The translations under genes and the position numbers were made by a program. The notes below the pieces were generated by a model. It was given only the letters and a program-made list of their open reading frames with translations. It was not told the DNA's origin and made no database searches. DNA of 51,504 nucleotides from Candidatus Woesearchaeota archaeon (lineage in GTDB: Archaea > Nanobdellota > Nanobdellia > SCGC-AAA011-G17 > GW2011-AR17), in assembly GCA_043818535.1 (NCBI GenBank), contig JBDRFS010000033.1, positions 1 through 51,504 of the forward strand. Reading direction: 5' to 3'. Shown here piece by piece: positions 2,048-43,054 of this stretch. Numbering within the stretch: the first letter of the stretch is position 1; every line of letters starts with the position of its first letter.

Positions 2048-2058
2048 TCACGATTCAT

Positions 2059-2147
2059 GGGCCGGTAGCTCAGTCTGGTAGAGCACCGCCCTTGCATATC
2101 GCCTTCAGGAAAGGCGGGGGCCTCGGGTTCGAATCCCGACCGGTCCA
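2059..2147 (+). tRNA. tRNA-Ala(UGC) with a 15-nt intron (2097-2111) at the canonical 37/38 site, in the 16S-23S spacer
   Basis: Manual cloverleaf. Acceptor GGGCCGG/CCGGTCC with the G3:U70 alanine identity pair. D arm GCTC-AGTCTGGTA-GAGC. Anticodon stem CCGCC/GGCGG with loop CTTGCA|intron|A. T arm TCGGG-TTCGAAT-CCCGA. Intron 3' part CAGG pairs with loop CTTG, leaving 3-nt bulges. No encoded CCA. Confidence 0.9.
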
Positions 2148-2262
2148 TTCACATTCATCATTCACTTGATACAATGCGCATCTTCTCGCGGGAGAAGGTG
2201 TAAGGGTGTCCATGTCCCTGGAAGCAGGAGCTTAAGGGTAGACTAGCATCCGTTAGATGTTC

Positions 2263-24933: not shown

Positions 24934-24961
24934 AGGAGATACATCTTACATTTTTCTTATT

Positions 24962-25060
24962 GGGGCTGTAGTCTAGCCTGGACTAGGACTCATGCTTGGG
25001 GAATCGGATTGGGTCCGGTACAAAATGTGTGCAACCGGGGTTCAAATCCTCGCAGCCCCA
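24962..25060 (+). tRNA. tRNA-Pro(GGG) with a 24-nt intron (25002-25025) at 37/38
   Basis: Manual fold. Acceptor GGGGCTG/CAGCCCC. D arm GTCT-AGCCTGGACTA-GGAC. Anticodon stem CATGC/GTGTG with loop TTGGGG|intron|T. Variable loop CAAC. T arm CGGGG-TTCAAAT-CCTCG. Discriminator A. The intron forms a bulge-helix-bulge: central helix TTGG/ACAA (one G-A mismatch), 3-nt bulges GG|A and AA|T, and distal helix ATCGGA/TCCGGT. Confidence 0.7.
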
Positions 25061-25070
25061 TATTTATTTT

Positions 25071-37260: not shown

Positions 37261-39423
37261 CTAAAGCTTTTTCCTCTTCAGCAGCAATGAATTTGTAACA
37301 ACGCTTACTGAGCTGAGGGCCATAGCTGCTCCTGCAATCATAGGGTTCAAAAGCCATCCTGTGAACGGGTACAATAATCCAGCAGCTATAGGTATGCCAA
37401 GAGAGTTGTAGAACAATGCCCAGAACATATTCTGCCTTATCTTCGACATTGTAAGCCTGCTAAGCTTTATTGCCTTTGAAACATCAAGAAGGCTGTTTCT
37501 CATCAGGACTATGCTTCCTGTTTCCATTGCAACATCGGTTCCAGAGCCCATTGCTATGCCAATGTCTGCTTGCGCCAAAGCAGGAGCGTCATTTATCCCA
37601 TCTCCAACCATGCACACCTTGCCCTTTTTCTGAAGCTTTTTGACATAACTGGCTTTATCCTCAGGCAATACTTCAGCAAAGAAATTACTTATGCCCGCCT
37701 TGTTTGCGATTGCTTCAGCTGTAACATTGTTGTCGCCTGTGATCATATAGACTTCTATGCCAAGCTCTTTCAGTTTTCTTACAGCTTCAGCAGAGTCTTC
37801 CTTTATTGCATCAGCAACAGCTACGATTCCTAAGACTCCTTTCGTGTCAGAGAGCAGCATAGCAGTCTTCCCTTCTCTTTCTAATTTAATGATATTATCT
37901 TTAGCAGCCGCGATGCTTATTTTATTCCTTTTCATGAGCTTTGCATTGCCAAGATAGTAGCTCCTCATCCCGAGCTTTGCTGTAACGCCATGGCCAGGGA
38001 CCGCTTTGAAATTTCTTGCAAGCTTAACTCTTCCCCTTGCCTTTTTAACGATTGCATCTGCAAGCGGATGCTCAGAGCCTTTTTCTATGCTTGCCGCAAT
38101 TGTAAGAATCTCGCTTTCCTTAAGCTTTCCTAGCGAAACAACATCTGTAACCTCAGGCTGCCCTTTTGTTATTGTCCCGGTCTTGTCAAATATGATATAC
38201 TTAAGCTTATGCGCAGTCTCTAACGCTTCCCCCCCTTTTATTAAGATGCCTGCTTTTGCTCCCTTCCCTGTACCTACCATTATTGCTGTGGGGGTTGCCA
38301 AGCCCAATGCGCAAGGGCACGCTATAACCAAGACTGCAACCGCTGCAATCAATGCAAAAGAGAACTCTGCAGCAAAATACCAGACCAAGAAAGTAAGGAC
38401 AGATATGCCCAGAACTGCTGGCACGAAATATGCTGAAACTTTGTCTGCAAACCTCTGTATGGGAGCCTTTGAGCCTTGTGCTTCCTCAACGAGCTTTATT
38501 ATCCTTGATAGGGTTGTATTTTCTCCCACATTTGTTGCCTTAAAGCTGAAGCTGCCGTACTTGTTGATTGTAGCGCCTATTACTTTATCACCCTTCTTCT
38601 TTTCAACCGGAATGCTCTCACCGGTGACCATGCTCTCGTCTATTGAAGTGTTGCCCTCTACTAAGATGCCGTCCACTGGAATTTTTTCTCCCGGCTTAAC
38701 AAGAACTATGTCCCCAACTTTAACATCGTCAATATTTATTTTCATTTCCTTCCCATTTCTTATTACAGTAGCAGTTTTCGGGCTCAGAGTCATAAGCTTC
38801 TGTATGGCCTCTGAAGTCCTTCCCCTTGCCGCAGCTTCAAGCAGCCTTCCAAGTATCACTACTGTTATCAATACTGCTGAAGCTTCAAAGTACTGGTGTG
38901 AGGAAGGAGAGAAAAGCACAACGTAAACGCTGTAGAAGTATGCGGATGAAGTGCCCATAGCTATAAGGGTGTCCATGTTTGCTGAAAAGTTCCTCAATGC
39001 TGCAAATGCCCCTCTGTAAAACTGGAATCCTACAAAGAACTGGACAGGTGTTGCAAGTGCCCACATTATGTAGGGCTGATACGGGACAGGAGTTTTTGTA
39101 AAAAACATCCCAAGTATGAAAACAGGGACAGCGAATATTGCGCTTATTAGGAACAATATCTTCATCCTTCTTATCTCATCTTTCTTAACTAAATAAGAAT
39201 GACTGTGTGCTGCTTCATGCTCTGCCCCATAGCCCAAGGATTTTATAATTCCTATTATCTTATTCTCAGAAACTTTTTTTGGATCAAACTTAACAGTGGC
39301 TGTTTCAGTGGCAAGGTTTACATTTGAATATGATATGCCCTCATGCTTAGCTAGCTTTTTGTCTATGAGCGTGGCGCAGCTTTGGCAGTGCATCCCATTT
39401 ATCTTTAGGCTTACTTTCTTCAT
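37261..39423 (-). CDS. copA: Copper-translocating P1B-type ATPase
   Basis: N-terminal HMA domain [15 protein letters not shown] motif ([11 protein letters not shown]), DKTGT, HP-type nucleotide-binding region and GDGINDAP. Confidence 0.93.
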
Positions 39424-39441
39424 CTGTTAGCTTCCTCTTTT

Positions 39442-39819
39442 TTAAGGGTGGCTGTTTTTATCACCTGGGTTGTATATATCTCTATCTTGATAGGGATTGG
39501 AATCTCCATTCTTCCATGTCCCATTCTCGTCTCCAAGCTCCCAGCCGTTGCTTTTGCCATCTCCGTCAGAATCCTTTTTTGCTAAAGCGCCACCCCATTT
39601 CATTTCGTTGGCCTTGAAATCTGCACCAAAAAGGTTGAGGTTGTCTGCTTTGTAACCGCCCGAATTGTGGCAGGTCTTACAGCTATACGCCTTTCCGTTC
39701 GGTATGTCTTTTATGCAGGTTGGCTTTGCCCGTCCACCCGTAGCTGCTGTTAAGCCTAGCAGAAGGCAGAGTCCTCCGGCAAAAAGTACGCCTTGCTTCA
39801 ATTTTTTTACTAAATTCAT
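39442..39819 (-). CDS. Small secreted protein with CxxCH motif and DxDxDG calcium-binding-like repeat
   Basis: 125 aa. It has an N-terminal signal-like segment, SCKTCH and DSDGDGKSNGWELGDENG. An SD aggagg precedes the ATG. It sits between the HMA-membrane fusion and copA. Confidence 0.5.
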   Translation of the reverse strand: MNLVKKLKQGVLFAGGLCLLLGLTAATGGRAKPTCIKDIPNGKAYSCKTCHNSGGYKADNLNLFGADFKANEMKWGGALAKKDSDGDGKSNGWELGDENGTWKNGDSNPYQDRDIYNPGDKNSHP

Positions 39820-39873
39820 TTTTCCTCCTAAATTTATTATTCTCTTTAACTATTTAATATTTCACTTATTGCA

Positions 39874-41313
39874 TTAACTTGCTCCACATCCTCCCCCACA
39901 CCCTCCGCCGCATCCGCCCCCGCAGCCTCCGCCGCAAGAGCCTTTTGGCTGTTCAACATTGCCTAGTTCTTCTTTTATTTCATTTATGTTAGTCACATCA
40001 TCCTTGACCATGAAAACCCCTGGAATCATGCCCATCCAGCAGCTCCATGGGATGACACCTTCTTCTTCAGGAGTGAATTCTATAACCTGCTCGCCTTTCT
40101 TGATATCAAAATTTAAACCTAGCTTTGGGACCTGTATTGCGTTGTTGCAGCCGTTTATCTCTTTCCCGTTAATGACCCATCTCACAGGAACGCCTTTCTT
40201 TAACACAAACTTGTCGGGTTCCCATCCGTATCTTACTACATCCATCCTTATCTCCTGGTAGCCCTGATTCATTGCAATAAAGCTGTCATCAGAAAGCTCT
40301 TTTGCAAAAGAGCCAGTTATGAGCGTATTATAATCATAGCCTGAGCCGGTAAGTGCAAAGCCCCTGTTAATCATAATAATGCCAAGTATCATCACAAGCA
40401 CCCCGGATGCTTTTAATATCTTGTTTGTAAGCTGGGAGCTTATCACTGATGTTAGTACCCCAAATCCAAGCATTACTGGAAGCGTGCCTAATGCAAAAAC
40501 TGCTAAGGCGATTGCCCCCTTAATAATGCTGCCAGTCCCTGCTGCATAGATGTATATTGCCAATAAAGGACCGCATGCAATCATGAAGCCGTTAAGCAGG
40601 CCAGTAACTAAAGGAGCCGTGTTACGACCTAGCTTACGGTTTATAAATGAAGGTGTTTGAGGCTGGAGTTTTCTCAACAAGGGAAAAATGTCAAGCATCT
40701 TAAGGCCAAAAGCTAAAAGGAAAATCCCTGCAAGGATAGCAATAATGCCCCTTAGCTTAGGAGTGAACACCACTAACGAGCCTATAAGGCCAAATAATGC
40801 TCCAAATGATGCATATGAGATTATCTTTCCTATGCCGTAGGACACATGTGACTTGAGGTTAAGACCTTTTTTCTTCATGGAACCTTTTGCAGAGTAAGAT
40901 ACAATAAATCCCCCGCACATTGCAATGCAGTGGAATCCTGTAAGAAGTCCAATAAGGAATATAATCACAAGGGATGTTTCAGCGCCAAGCTCTGGCAGGG
41001 TAAGCCTGTAAGCGCCCTTAAGTATAAGATAGGCTCCTGCAAGCGCAACAACTATGGCAGTTGCAATTGCATAATTCCTATTCTTCCTTTTCAGCTTTTC
41101 TTCTTCATCTGTGCAAGAGTATCCTTTCTCATTTACTATTTTGCAGAGCCTTTCATAACTGGTTCTTTCCGGATCAAATGAGACTACGCATTTACCGGAT
41201 GCATAATCAGCAGTGCAGCTTCTGACACCTTCTTCTTCAATGATGCTGCTTTCAATAATCTTCTCGCAGCTGCTGCAGTGCATCCCCTCAACATCTAAAA
41301 CTGTTTTTGCCAT
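39874..41313 (-). CDS. HMA domain - TauE/SafE- or DsbD_2-like membrane domain - cupredoxin-like domain fusion with a (CGGG)n tail
   Basis: N-terminal GMHCSSCEKI (HMA). About 6 TM segments with GFHCIAMCGGF. The C-terminal beta-rich domain ends IPWSCWMGMIPGVFMV (a cupredoxin-like C-x-M-G-M ligand motif). The last 22 residues are GSCGGGCGGGCGGGCGGGCGAS. Confidence 0.6.
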   Translation of the reverse strand: MAKTVLDVEGMHCSSCEKIIESSIIEEEGVRSCTADYASGKCVVSFDPERTSYERLCKIVNEKGYSCTDEEEKLKRKNRNYAIATAIVVALAGAYLILKGAYRLTLPELGAETSLVIIFLIGLLTGFHCIAMCGGFIVSYSAKGSMKKKGLNLKSHVSYGIGKIISYASFGALFGLIGSLVVFTPKLRGIIAILAGIFLLAFGLKMLDIFPLLRKLQPQTPSFINRKLGRNTAPLVTGLLNGFMIACGPLLAIYIYAAGTGSIIKGAIALAVFALGTLPVMLGFGVLTSVISSQLTNKILKASGVLVMILGIIMINRGFALTGSGYDYNTLITGSFAKELSDDSFIAMNQGYQEIRMDVVRYGWEPDKFVLKKGVPVRWVINGKEINGCNNAIQVPKLGLNFDIKKGEQVIEFTPEEEGVIPWSCWMGMIPGVFMVKDDVTNINEIKEELGNVEQPKGSCGGGCGGGCGGGCGGGCGAS

Positions 41314-41331
41314 AGCAGATAAGAGAATTGA

Positions 41332-41349
41332 AACCCCTTATAAGGGGTT
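41332..41349. promoter_or_regulatory. Perfect 18-bp palindrome overlapping the promoter of the HMA-fusion/copA transcription unit (candidate operator)
   Basis: aaccccttataaggggtt lies 19-36 nt upstream of the ATG at 41313, with TTATAA at its centre. A second 14-bp palindrome tgaaactagtttca is at 41353-41366. Confidence 0.45.
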
Positions 41350-41363
41350 GTATGAAACTAGTT

Positions 41364-41849
41364 TCACTGCTTTAATATAACAACGTTGGTCATTCCGCGC
41401 CTTCTCCTCTCTATAATGCCCTTCCCCTCCAGCTTATCCAGGATTCTTGTCATCTTCACTTTTGTAAGCCCTGTCTTGTCCACAAGATCTGACTGGAAGA
41501 TTGTGCCTTCGGCTTTCACTACTTGCTTTATGACTGTTTTTTCATCTCCCTTAAGTTTTCTGACGATTGCTGAGTAATCCTTCTTTTTTTCCTTCTTCCT
41601 TATTGTCTTTATCACTATCTTCTCGTCCCTCCCAAAGAAGACAAGATAGATTCCTATAAGTGCTACAACGACTGTGATGCCGATGCTAACATTTGTGTGA
41701 AAGTTTATAGTGCCCCACATAGGGCATTCTGGCCCATGGGAGCAAGCGGTATTTACTATATCCGTAAGTGCCTTGTTGAAGGAATAGACAATAAAAGCTA
41801 TAAGTATAGCCACTCCAATAATTATGTATCCGACAATCCTGTTTTTCAT
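41364..41849 (-). CDS. Membrane-anchored winged-helix transcriptional regulator with extracytoplasmic Cys motif
   Basis: It has two TM segments flanking ACSHGPECPMWG, then a C-terminal MarR/TrmB-like wHTH (TIFQSDLVDKTGLTKVKMTRILDKLEGKGIIERRRRG). Confidence 0.55.
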   Translation of the reverse strand: MKNRIVGYIIIGVAILIAFIVYSFNKALTDIVNTACSHGPECPMWGTINFHTNVSIGITVVVALIGIYLVFFGRDEKIVIKTIRKKEKKKDYSAIVRKLKGDEKTVIKQVVKAEGTIFQSDLVDKTGLTKVKMTRILDKLEGKGIIERRRRGMTNVVILKQ

Positions 41850-41889
41850 GCTATTGTCTTACTGCCAGTTTTTTTAAACCTTACGGATT

Positions 41890-42381
41890 TCAAGCTCTTT
41901 TATTGAAACTTTCAGATTTAATGAAAGAAATAAGCGAGACTATTGAAAGCACAAGTATTGTGGCTATGAATATTGCGGAAGTGACGCACAGCGGGCATAT
42001 CGCATGCAGGACATAGACTTCTATGTATGTGAGGAAGAGAGAGAACATGAACGCTGCTAGTACTAGGAGGAAAACTGAGTAGTAGACGTCCCTTGTCCTG
42101 ATCTTCCTATGTACCTTTGAGAAGTCAATGTCTTTCAGGAGCAAGAGTGATAATATGAGGAATGCTATGTATCCTATAACTCCAAGTAAAGCTACTGGTA
42201 TTCCAAACATCTTAGAGTATTCACTCCTGTTGACAATGTCGCAGCTTACCTGCTCGTTTATGTCGCAGAAGCTCTCGTGGCTCACCTTGTAGTGCGCGTA
42301 TGTCTGGTAGGATGAGAGGATTATTCCTGATACTGCTATCAAGGCTATGAGCATGAGGCAGATGTTTATTGTCCTTTTCAT
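41890..42381 (-). CDS. Vitamin K epoxide reductase (VKOR) family thiol oxidoreductase
   Basis: Four TM segments, a loop Cys pair (CDINEQVSCD) and the CPLC active-site motif in the last helix. The start was set at ATG 42381 (the tracked ORF begins at a GTG 3 nt upstream). Confidence 0.6.
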   Translation of the reverse strand: MKRTINICLMLIALIAVSGIILSSYQTYAHYKVSHESFCDINEQVSCDIVNRSEYSKMFGIPVALLGVIGYIAFLILSLLLLKDIDFSKVHRKIRTRDVYYSVFLLVLAAFMFSLFLTYIEVYVLHAICPLCVTSAIFIATILVLSIVSLISFIKSESFNKRA

Positions 42382-42402
42382 CACATTTTAATTCAGCGCA
42401 AG

Positions 42403-42414
42403 GCTTATATAAGC
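42403..42414. promoter_or_regulatory. Palindromic shared TATA box for the divergent VKOR and DUF1461-like genes
   Basis: gcttatataagc is a perfect 12-bp palindrome, 22 nt from the VKOR ATG and 20 nt from the ATG at 42434. Confidence 0.45.
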
Positions 42415-42433: not shown

Positions 42434-43054
42434 ATGAAGATTCTTAAGGTGCTTCTGGTGCTCATGATGCCTGTTATGGTATTGCTTTTTAGCTCTATGG
42501 CAATCATTATGGATGATGATTTCTTTTATGGCCAGTTTAACGAGAATGGTGTTTACTTGTCTGTGCCTGAGGCTGATGATGTTTACTATAATCTTTCTTT
42601 TTATCTGGTAAAGGGTGGGGAACTGGACCAGTCTTATTATTCGGAGACAGAGGTCAAGCATCTGGAGGATGTGAAGATCATTATTGGGACTGCATCCTAT
42701 CTTCTTGTTATACTCATAATATCTTCTATCTCTATTACAGCCTATCTTTTTGTCAGGAAGGACTATTCTGGTGCAGGCACATCTTTCTTTATTGGAGGCA
42801 TATTGTCTTTTGTGATATCTGTTGTGCTGGCTGCTTATGCGTATTTTTCCTTTAATGACTTCTTTTTAATGTTTCACCAGATAATGTTTAAGAATGATTT
42901 TTGGATGCTGCCTTCTTCTTCAATGCTGATAAGGCTTTTCCCGCAGGAGTTTTTCTTTGCTGCTGCGAAAAGGGTTGTTTTTAGCTGTATGCTTTTGTCT
43001 TCCTTTAGTGTTGTGAAGGGCATAGTGCTGAGGGTTTTGCCTAAGAAGCTTTAG
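42434..43054 (+). CDS. Integral membrane protein, TIGR01906/DUF1461-like
   Basis: An N-terminal TM segment, an extracytoplasmic stretch with ETEVKHLEDVK (E-x-x-H-M-x-D-V-like motif), then 3 TM segments. 206 aa. Confidence 0.45.
   Translation: MKILKVLLVLMMPVMVLLFSSMAIIMDDDFFYGQFNENGVYLSVPEADDVYYNLSFYLVKGGELDQSYYSETEVKHLEDVKIIIGTASYLLVILIISSISITAYLFVRKDYSGAGTSFFIGGILSFVISVVLAAYAYFSFNDFFLMFHQIMFKNDFWMLPSSSMLIRLFPQEFFFAAAKRVVFSCMLLSSFSVVKGIVLRVLPKKL

Follow-up and report, generated by a model that had tools for sequence, protein, structure and literature searches.

A 51,504-nucleotide (nt) stretch of archaeal DNA (the window) carries a minus-strand cluster of five genes, at the heart of which there is probably an uncharacterised membrane-tethered, copper-responsive one-component regulator, REG, that controls a leaderless operon of three genes. 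These encode FUS, an HMA–DsbD_2–cupredoxin fusion, TEMP, a Temptin_C mini-protein, and the copper-exporting ATPase CopA. The conserved unit is REG with its own operator and with genes for copper handling and export; VKOR, the fifth gene, lies outside it. Homologues of REG occur across 553 archaeal genomes at species level, most of them DPANN.

The five open reading frames (ORFs) run in the order VKOR, REG, FUS, TEMP, CopA and are separated by 40, 50, 54 and 18 nt (Table 1). A sequence-only reading of the window had given the same five genes and coordinates with gaps of 18-54 nt, and all the motifs that it quoted (CPLC, CSHGPEC, HCIAMCGG, CKTCH, DSDGDG and the spacers aggagg and gaggaag) are present. 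With homologues in the hundreds to thousands, these are not chance ORFs. Because the window contains an archaeal 16S-tRNA-23S operon, and because the best relatives of its proteins come from metagenome-assembled genomes labelled Woesearchaeota, Pacearchaeota, Nanoarchaeota, Aenigmatarchaeota, Altiarchaeota and similar, we take the host to be a DPANN-like archaeon. Archaeal promoter rules are therefore the proper frame: the B recognition element (BRE) and TATA box lie about 26-27 nt before the start, and leaderless mRNAs are frequent.

The REG regulator

REG consists of a first transmembrane (TM) helix (TM1, residues 5-23), a helical-hairpin tip C36-S-H38-G-P-E-C42-P-M44-W45, TM2 (54-72), a Lys-rich linker and a C-terminal MarR/ArsR-like winged helix-turn-helix (wHTH) domain (93-159). 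It scores 44.4 bits against DUF7343 (cut-off 27.6) and, over residues 114-150 alone, 29.3 bits against MarR (cut-off 24.6), while the TRASH domain gave no match to it in Pfam or NCBIfam. In the AlphaFold model (pLDDT 79) residues 2-35 and 43-72 form a helical hairpin, at whose tip the Cys-His-Cys turn sits. Residues 76-89 are the Lys-rich linker, which is disordered and varies in length, and residues 93-159 fold as a winged helix. The N-terminus is positively charged (MKNR) and the stretch past TM2 strongly so. From this charge distribution, and because the wHTH must reach DNA, the hairpin tip is predicted to lie at the outer face of the membrane. Profile matches, model and hydropathy agree with the earlier description of a two-TM wHTH regulator with an external Cys motif. 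A Foldseek search of the PDB with the REG model returned only generic resemblance of the wHTH to ArsR/SmtB, MarR and CodY domains and no match for the N-terminal half. Nor does REG have the layout of soluble MarR-type dimers, with flanking N- and C-terminal dimerisation helices: it ends at the wing, at residue 161, and its N-terminal half is the TM hairpin and the disordered linker.

More than 1240 homologues of REG were found in the protein collection; they span DPANN phyla, and for most of them full-length identity is 58-78%. In an alignment of 24 diverse members C36, H38, G39, C42, M44 and W45 are invariant, and the segment between the helices is the best-conserved stretch besides the DNA-binding helix. 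Of 131 complete REG ORFs, about 113 have the loop motif C-x-H-G-x-x-C-(P/A)-M-W.

Some loci carry second REG-like copies (L049:1055-1540 and L049:1600-2100, in tandem; L053:3147-3656 and L053:8001-8501) with altered hairpin tips such as CFIDGEC, CSVSGPSC and CTEGLSCPMW, in which C-x5/6-C is kept and the His, sometimes also the Met-Trp, is lost. These copies may be paralogous sensors with other specificities.

The operator and core promoter

The operator was uncovered by aligning the DNA past REG stop codons. Its conserved layout opens with the palindrome TGAAAC-TA-GTTTCA, whose first bases are often the REG stop codon. After it come tACAA, the TATA box (c)TTATAAGG and, at a fixed offset of 24 nt, a third half-site, GTTTCA, that is more than 90% conserved. 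The full conserved element reads TGAAACTAGTTTCA-N18-GTTTCA and the cross-locus promoter consensus TGAAACTAGTTTCAtACAAnnn(c)TTATAAGGnGTTTCA; within it, TATAAG-NN-GTTTCA is a degenerate copy of the palindrome with the TATA box as its left arm.

In a linkage sample of 80 genomic loci centred on REG and searched with the window proteins, TGAAACNNGTTTCA occurs exactly once per locus in 61, and variants with one or two mismatches occur in about 12 more; the estimated chance expectation for 12 specified bases in ~16 kb is ~0.001 per locus. Within two mismatches, O1 is the single operator match of the window. The operator precedes the first copper or Cys-rich gene in all loci but L049, where it stands before the second REG copy. 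When REG and the cop genes are split by unrelated genes (for example in L002, L005, L017, L018 and L053), the operator stays with the cop genes and not with REG.

In many loci, the window included, the ATG follows the start of the palindrome by 52-53 nt. This spacing puts the centre of the TATA box about 27 nt before the ATG (27.5 nt before that of FUS) and suggests that the FUS-TEMP-CopA transcript is leaderless. In other loci, which have a GGTGAT ribosome-binding site, the ATG stands at +63-65. Shine-Dalgarno motifs (aggagg, gaggaag) lie in the FUS-TEMP and TEMP-CopA gaps, which hold no T-tracts, and together with the palindrome-bearing promoter they support the earlier impression that the last three genes look like one transcript. 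At L019:5827-5900 the operator module is apparently part-duplicated, with GTTTCATACAA found twice, ~40 nt apart, each time before a TATA-like box, which suggests tandem promoters.

A different, 18-bp palindrome had been proposed at this promoter. The perfect palindrome AACCCCTTATAAGGGGTT is indeed present at 41332-41349, where it encloses TTATAA, but it is not the conserved cis-element and we rejected it as an operator: its CCCC/GGGG arms are unconserved, and the nearest relative has one mismatch. It is a window-specific extension of the palindromic CTTATAAG core around the TATA box.

The position of the operator also bears on the sign of regulation. REG might activate transcription, with copper-bridged dimerisation of the tips, in the manner of ToxR and CadC, joining two wHTH domains on the palindrome and recruiting TFB and TBP. 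The perfect palindrome lies upstream of BRE/TATA with its centre ~46 nt before the ATG, archaeal activators usually sit upstream of BRE/TATA, and a flexible linker suits control by dimerisation better than allostery. However, the third half-site forms with the TATA box the degenerate palindrome at a fixed distance, the simplest reading of which is competition with TBP. We regard activation as a serious but unlikely alternative to repression.

Linkage of REG, the operator and copper genes

Where at least 4 kb of sequence past REG was available (63 loci), CopA lies downstream on the same strand in 49, and in 46 it is no more than 4.5 kb away. The 52 evaluable operator loci include 44 with CopA, 47 with at least one HMA domain and 41 with an HMA–membrane–ectodomain protein. 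As a reverse test, the metagenome collection was scanned with the operator pattern alone, which gave at least 120 stretches, and 80 loci were examined; with the 80 REG-centred loci they make up the 160 comparison loci. REG was found directly upstream on the same strand in 45/67 operator-defined loci with enough upstream DNA (within 2.5 kb in ~57), and HMA or membrane copper proteins were encoded no more than 450 nt downstream in 40/70 evaluable loci. If a cop gene was not next to the operator, the proximal gene still encoded a secreted or anchored Cys-rich protein: DUF411/CopG-like, DsbA-like, PCYCGC, small Cys/Gly peptides or one of two families without a Pfam match. The linkage of REG, operator and cop genes extends across hundreds of genomes, and the operator, REG and the copper/Cys-rich regulon predict each other from either direction.

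Several of the genes behind the operator deserve separate mention. Small signal-anchored peptides of 80-100 residues with Cys/Gly-rich tails (e.g. ...CGNPTCG...GGCGCSK) come first after the operator in loci without cop genes (L059:8581-8823, L067:8570-8842, L069:8536-8772, L078:7546-7842, L146:3519-3779); they resemble the C-terminal tail of FUS and look like secreted, metallothionein-like copper sponges. The two Pfam-less families of membrane-anchored Cys-rich proteins are typified by 'SQISCEYCCG…ACGCAHSYAMRGL' and 'EIPCCGF…CxCGHH' (L092:2055-2714, L111:378-1022, L116:288-1010, L118:2901-3650, L149:883-1551; L115:1855-2469, L143:1183-1734, L089:867-1295). DUF411/CopG-like proteins occur at L088:2784-3332 and L120:6915-7400, and occasional thiol/copper accessory genes under the operator include a VKOR in the operon of L007 (3621-4166) and a DsbA-like Thioredoxin_4 protein (L138:2172-2765).

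FUS and the type B proteins

FUS scores 51.9 bits against HMA, 148.8 against DsbD_2 (cut-off 24.9) and 29.1 against DsbD_TM (cut-off 27.1), and its C-terminal domain reaches only a sub-threshold 16.4 bits against Cupredoxin_1 (cut-off 27). The cupredoxin call, part of the earlier description of an HMA–membrane–cupredoxin fusion, is nevertheless confirmed by homology in structure and sequence to the pneumococcal Cu(I) chaperone CupA. The top Foldseek match of the ectodomain in the PDB is CupA (4f2e, E 4.3e-9, 36% identity, TM-score 0.89), followed by 4f2f, the cupredoxin metal-binding domain of pneumococcal CopA; phmmer recovers the CupA homology at E 1.3e-14, and the CupA ligands ('...spCld...', '...aCgMnMm...') align with C389 and C425-x-M427-x-M429 of FUS. 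The C-terminal domain of FUS is a CupA homologue. CupA binds a binuclear Cu(I) cluster via a bridging Cys, with a bis-thiolate and a Met-rich site, and passes copper to CopA (PMC7558416); the same review describes it as confined to a few streptococci.

The characteristic motifs of FUS are TGFHCIAMCGG in core TM1, ACGP in core TM4 and the ligands C389 and C425-W-M427-G-M429. Across 38 FUS-family sequences the HMA CxxC, TGFHC..MCGG, ACGP, C389, M427, M429 and two Cys of the tail are invariant, as are C129 and C133 (core TM1) and C247 (core TM4, in ACGP); C425 is conserved in more than 90%. In the FUS model (pLDDT 77.5, above 90 for ectodomain residues 351-420) the HMA domain is separated from a β-sandwich by seven TM helices. 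Since the sequence has seven hydrophobic segments with alternating loop charge, the HMA domain is predicted to be inside and the CupA-like domain and (CGGG)n tail outside. CupA has another layout, with a single N-terminal TM anchor, a cytoplasmic position and a partner CopA that carries a cupredoxin domain. Because in FUS seven TM helices precede the domain, the domain is predicted to be external and the CopA here has an HMA domain, FUS holds a CupA-type domain without being a CupA orthologue. It combines this domain with a DsbD-type core and is an orthologue of neither protein. The C-terminus of FUS (window 39874-39960, residues 451-479) is the (CGGG)n repeat GSCGGGCGGGCGGGCGGGCGAS; in FUS homologues the length of the repeat varies, and the end always consists of GGGCGCGG-like Cys/Gly runs.

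In 29 of the 52 operator loci the FUS slot behind the operator is filled by a different protein, which we call type B. Its parts are an optional N-terminal HMA domain, 3-4 TM helices with 'GLIPHIGC' ('GLIPHIGCIAF') and, outside the membrane, an HMA-like domain with 'IPCPGH'. Pfam has no match for the TM part, in which the sequences read show one conserved Cys, beside a His. The motif of the external HMA-like domain is VDIPCPGHAPLI. Sometimes a CupA-like domain is present, and often the same Cys/Gly tail as in FUS (examples are L001:8558-9331, L008:8574-9512, L028:5773-6666 and L033:8562-9923, with ~40 other loci). As the type B sequences read have a single conserved TM Cys, beside a His, the job common to FUS and type B is more likely metal handling than electron relay.

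FUS could still be a reductant conduit of the CcdA/DsbD type, in which the TM Cys shuttle electrons and keep the external CupA-like domain and tail reduced for Cu(I) delivered by CopA. The DsbD_2 and DsbD_TM scores and the invariant C129, C133 and C247, as in CcdA/DsbD, speak for such a function, and external Cys ligands would require reduction. On the other hand, Pfam and NCBIfam searches found no thioredoxin-fold domain or neighbour in the five-gene cluster, the N-terminal domain has the HMA metal-binding fold, a sequence search of the PDB found nothing related to the TM core, and the one conserved TM Cys in the sequences read of type B, which occupies the same slot, cannot make a redox pair. 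The conduit is thus a doubtful reading, one that we would place behind metal handling.

Thiol redox and the position of VKOR

The Cys of the REG tip also admit a redox function. REG could sense external thiol or oxidative stress, or copper-catalysed thiol oxidation, with a C36-C42 disulfide as the switch in place of reversible Cu(I) coordination. A C-x5-C pair at a solvent-exposed hairpin tip fits such a switch, the Cys pair is the best-conserved feature across REG paralogues, and the regulon holds DsbA-like and many Cys-rich secreted proteins. However, His38, Met44 and Trp45 are conserved like the Cys pair in the main family; these are typical Cu(I) ligand or capping residues, needless for a plain disulfide, and the regulated genes are dominated by CopA, CopZ-like HMA proteins and CupA-like domains. 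We therefore consider a disulfide switch improbable.

VKOR matches PF07884 with 105.5 bits (cut-off 27.5), in line with its earlier assignment, and because all NCBIfam VKOR equivalogs fall below their cut-offs it is a divergent member of the family. Its external loop carries the Cys pair C40/C48, and C130-P-L-C133 stands where the last core TM helix starts. No DsbA-like gene is present in the five-gene cluster. The nearest relative, GCA_974558285.1 (L083; REG 77% identical), retains the order PheS-PheT-Lit-VKOR-REG-FUS and has the same GnTTATATAAGCC box at VKOR. There (L083:6229-7211, compared with window 41364-42384) only 2 nt separate the stop codon of VKOR from the ATG of REG and no REG TATA-like box is present, whereas the window has a 40-nt A-rich spacer; VKOR and REG probably form a dicistron in the L083 lineage.

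Direct adjacency of VKOR and REG is confined to the window and its nearest relative (L083/L084). An HMM search placed a VKOR within ±8 kb in 3/80 REG loci and 0/80 operator-defined loci, and each of the three has a setting of its own: the L007 copy is part of the operon, the L020 copy follows CopA, and that of L053 lies 1.1 kb upstream of REG. The immediate upstream neighbours of REG (n = 76) are heterogeneous in size, strand and family (transketolase, the commonest, appears five times), and a Pfam scan lists no VKOR among their families. L086, an equally close relative (REG 78%), has ThiI upstream of REG, and a relative at 70% REG identity has an HxlR gene. Given the heterogeneous neighbours, the rarity of VKOR and the ThiI or HxlR genes of other close relatives, the VKOR-REG pair is a young, lineage-specific juxtaposition and no conserved module. 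VKOR as a conserved upstream partner was rejected by both the Pfam scan of the 76 neighbours and the HMM search of the 160 loci.

The sequence-only reading had joined all five genes into one system for Cu(I) and thiol redox state. VKOR would then oxidise or balance the external Cys of REG and of the copper proteins, and Cu(I) and thiol redox would be sensed together at the outer face. The small gap between VKOR and REG in the window and the probable co-transcription in the nearest relative favour this, as do the VKOR of L007, flanked by a CopZ-like gene and a FUS homologue in an operon under the operator, and that of L020 after CopA. DsbA-like thioredoxins lie between REG and CopA in 3-4 loci and directly after the operator in L138, and C-x5-C is the sole loop feature retained in divergent REG paralogues. 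In the bacterial envelope, moreover, copper catalyses non-native disulfides, and ToxR and CadC carry DsbA-dependent periplasmic disulfides. Against all this, VKOR is missing in 77/80 REG loci and 80/80 operator-defined loci, the upstream neighbours vary, L086 has ThiI, a TATA box of its own but no operator precedes the window VKOR, and 3/80 within ±8 kb is about what a single-copy gene in a ~1-Mb genome would give by a rough inferred baseline. Membership of VKOR in the system falls on these counts, and a five-gene system is improbable. The redox theme retains some support from the occasional DsbA-like genes behind the operator and the VKOR in one locus; as to gene order, VKOR-REG-FUS recurs in the nearest relative, and across the 160 comparison loci VKOR is rare and Temptin_C absent.

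TEMP, CopA and neighbouring genes

TEMP, formerly known by its motifs, is a Temptin_C protein (PF24784, 63.1 bits, cut-off 27) with an N-terminal hydrophobic segment, and its motifs fit the SCxTCH and DSDGDGxTNGxELGDP consensus of 156 aligned sequences. In most cases the domain (1881 representative clusters; consensus IPNG..FSC.TCH…DSDGDG.TNG.ELGDP) forms the N-terminal module of secreted proteins 100-1300 residues long. TEMP has few close relatives, one directly after CopA (L081) and one after an unrelated gene for a tRNA-binding protein (L082). An HMM built from the 156 sequences found Temptin_C in 0/160 REG/operator loci, and we rejected it as a conserved operon member; L081 is the one other contig that links it to CopA, in reversed order. 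A c-type cytochrome was also rejected, as a dihaem model gave a partial match of 22 bits (cut-off 300) and the PDB no sequence relative. TEMP is probably a rare accessory external Cys/His protein; its role is only putative but would fit the theme of variable Cys-rich surface proteins.

CopA scores 670 bits against TIGR01511 (cut-off 397), as expected from its earlier assignment to the P1B-ATPases, and 678 against TIGR01525 (cut-off 346). It has every P1B-1 signature: GMHCQSC10, CPC369, DKTGT413, GDGIND607, YN672 and MALSS701.

Divergent from VKOR, the window encodes a membrane protein of the Lit/TIGR01906 family (lipoprotein intramolecular transacylase family; 42434-43054, plus strand, 80.8 bits). 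The gene is syntenic in the nearest relative, and the family is unusual for an archaeon. ARAGORN reports a 91-nt tRNA in the 16S-23S spacer (window 2058-2148; Rfam, 2059-2147), which is long and may hold an intron, and a 101-nt 'tRNA-???' with a four-base anticodon (window 24961-25061) that Rfam does not report.

Table 1. Genes and regulatory elements of the cluster, in window positions.
Feature	Position	Strand	Description	Basis
VKOR TATA-like box	42405..42412	-	TTATATAA, ~27 nt before ATG 42381; putative	read from sequence
VKOR	41890..42384	-	VKOR-family stand-alone membrane thiol oxidoreductase; probable start ATG 42381	PF07884
REG TATA-like box	41869..41878	-	A/T-rich box TTTAAAAAAA before REG; putative	read from sequence
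REG	41364..41849	-	membrane-tethered one-component regulator	Pfam, loop conservation, model, hydropathy/charge
Operator O1	41353..41366	-	perfect palindrome TGAAAC-TA-GTTTCA (TGAAACTAGTTTCA), overlaps REG stop codon TGA	conserved across REG loci
Core promoter and TATA-overlapping hemi-operator	41329..41349	-	TATA box TTATAA 41338-41343; third half-site GTTTCA 41329-41334	
FUS	39874..41313	-	cytoplasmic HMA (CSSC), 7-TM DsbD_2 core, external CupA-like cupredoxin domain, (CGGG)n tail; topology predicted	
TEMP	39442..39819	-	secreted or anchored Temptin_C-domain protein, CKTCH and DSDGDG	PF24784
CopA	37261..39423	-	P1B-1 Cu(I)/Ag(I)-exporting ATPase, one N-terminal HMA	TIGR01511 and motifs

Comparison with known systems

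Like ToxR, CadC and TcpP, REG is one membrane-spanning polypeptide with an external sensing element, a cytoplasmic winged helix and a nearby promoter, and external Cys matter in ToxR and CadC. The resemblance is functional only. ToxR-type proteins have an N-terminal OmpR wHTH, one TM helix and a C-terminal periplasmic domain, whereas REG has the reverse order, an N-terminal 2-TM hairpin followed by a C-terminal wHTH that is MarR/ArsR/CodY-like and not OmpR-like. Its sensor is the 30-residue hairpin tip in place of a folded periplasmic domain, and it works in an archaeal host on a TATA/BRE promoter.

The archaeal CopR/CopT-CopA-CopZ systems (copTMA; Sulfolobus, Thermococcus, Pyrococcus) likewise combine a regulator beside copA and a chaperone with an operator that overlaps the core promoter and a predicted copper response. 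CopR/CopT proteins are soluble, with an HTH and a C-terminal TRASH domain, and sense cytoplasmic copper. REG lacks TRASH and is membrane-embedded with its candidate ligands outside; the arrangement is, as had been noted, not the classical archaeal one. With CusS/CopS, REG would have in common that it senses copper in the envelope rather than in the cytoplasm. Unlike them, it is a single protein with Cys ligands and without a histidine kinase, response regulator or periplasmic PAS-like domain. In CusF a Trp caps the Cu(I) site, and the C-x-H…C-x-M-W ligand set of REG may be likened to this Met2His-Trp site.

FUS resembles CcdA, DsbD and ScsB in its DsbD_2 and DsbD_TM matches and in the conserved Cys of core TM1 and TM4, and ScsB-type systems are linked to copper tolerance. 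It differs in that its flanking domains are metal-binding (HMA and CupA-like), the H-C-x-x-M-C of TM1 is metal-site-like and no electron partner is nearby. Compared with CupA and the metal-binding domain of CopA of S. pneumoniae (PDB 4F2E, 4F2F), FUS is alike in fold, in the bridging Cys and CxMxM ligands and in its place in a cop operon with CopA. CupA, however, has a single TM anchor, is on the cytoplasmic side by its reported role and feeds a cupredoxin-type CopA domain. In FUS a 7-TM DsbD_2 core precedes the domain, whose predicted place is outside the cell; an N-terminal HMA domain and a Cys/Gly tail are added, and the accompanying CopA has an ordinary HMA domain. The FUS fusion is widespread in DPANN archaea, whereas CupA is known from few streptococci (PMC7558416). 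VKOR, finally, has the family loop Cys pair and CxxC and scores well over threshold, as in VKOR–DsbA systems, but has no fused or adjacent DsbA-like partner, and its place beside a copper regulator is confined to the lineage of the window.

Proposed mechanism

In the copper-responsive repression that we favour, REG dimers would bind TGAAACTAGTTTCA upstream of BRE/TATA and, cooperatively, the weaker TATA + GTTTCA site just downstream. Copper-free REG would thereby compete with TBP/TFB and shut the promoter. Cu(I) or Ag(I) bound to the external Cys2-His-Met tip under a Trp cap would change the pairing of the TM hairpins, and their repacking would free the TATA box for synthesis of the leaderless FUS-TEMP-CopA mRNA. 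CopA would then export Cu(I), while FUS might take Cu(I) at its cytoplasmic HMA domain, from the CopA exit site, or both, and pass or hold it along the membrane His/Cys/Met residues, the external CupA-like binuclear site and the Cys/Gly tail, buffering copper at the surface. The binding of REG to the operator is suggested by their genomic association; we infer that copper is the signal, that REG represses rather than activates and that copper is routed through FUS.

Several points weigh against this scheme. The case for DNA binding by REG is one of co-occurrence, the disordered linker of variable length makes allosteric signalling uncertain, and a palindrome upstream of BRE would fit an activator equally. 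The external Cys may be disulfide-oxidised and unable to bind Cu(I), and some REG paralogues keep the C-x5-C pair alone, without His, Met or Trp, which a redox switch fits as well. The DsbD_2 core of FUS could carry electrons and not copper, and in 6/52 operator loci a recognised copper gene is absent within 6 kb. A look-up of public sequencing runs listed none that holds the window stretch.

More tentatively, REG may found a new class of archaeal metal sensors that read extracytoplasmic Cu(I)/Ag(I) directly through the C-x-H-G-x-x-C-P-M-W tip and control the promoter by bracketing the TATA box (TGAAACTAGTTTCA-N18-GTTTCA). With HMA–membrane–ectodomain relay proteins, which come in two unrelated TM types, it would make up a compact, probably mobile copper-defence cassette of most DPANN lineages and some methanogen relatives.

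Significance

Neither the REG family nor its operator nor the FUS architecture turned up in open-literature searches, an absence that is no proof of novelty. Searches on DUF7343, DsbD_2/Cupredoxin_1 fusions, membrane-bound archaeal copper regulators and prokaryotic temptin found nothing relevant. Of the copper system first read from the window, the membrane Cys regulator, the Cys/Met-rich membrane protein with its external copper domain and CopA stand, and VKOR and TEMP are not core. The finding is narrower in this sense yet broader in another, since what emerges is a DPANN copper regulatory cassette that is widespread, sharply defined and, it seems, undescribed.

To our knowledge, copper sensing in archaea is known almost only from the soluble TRASH-domain CopR of a few cultivated thermophiles. 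DPANN archaea are uncultivated and have tiny genomes with very few recognisable regulators. If the proposal holds, REG, its operator and regulon being sharply delimited in more than 500 species-level genomes, would rank among the best-defined transcriptional circuits of DPANN archaea, and with a short operator, a protein of 161 residues and a candidate metal site of 30 residues it is directly testable. As a membrane-bound one-component regulator, REG would be a rarity among archaea, and it would sense envelope copper without a two-component system. The FUS family puts a CupA-type Cu(I) site, so far from few streptococci, outside a DsbD-like core, and this suggests a new way to handle exported copper at the surface of a cell without an outer membrane.

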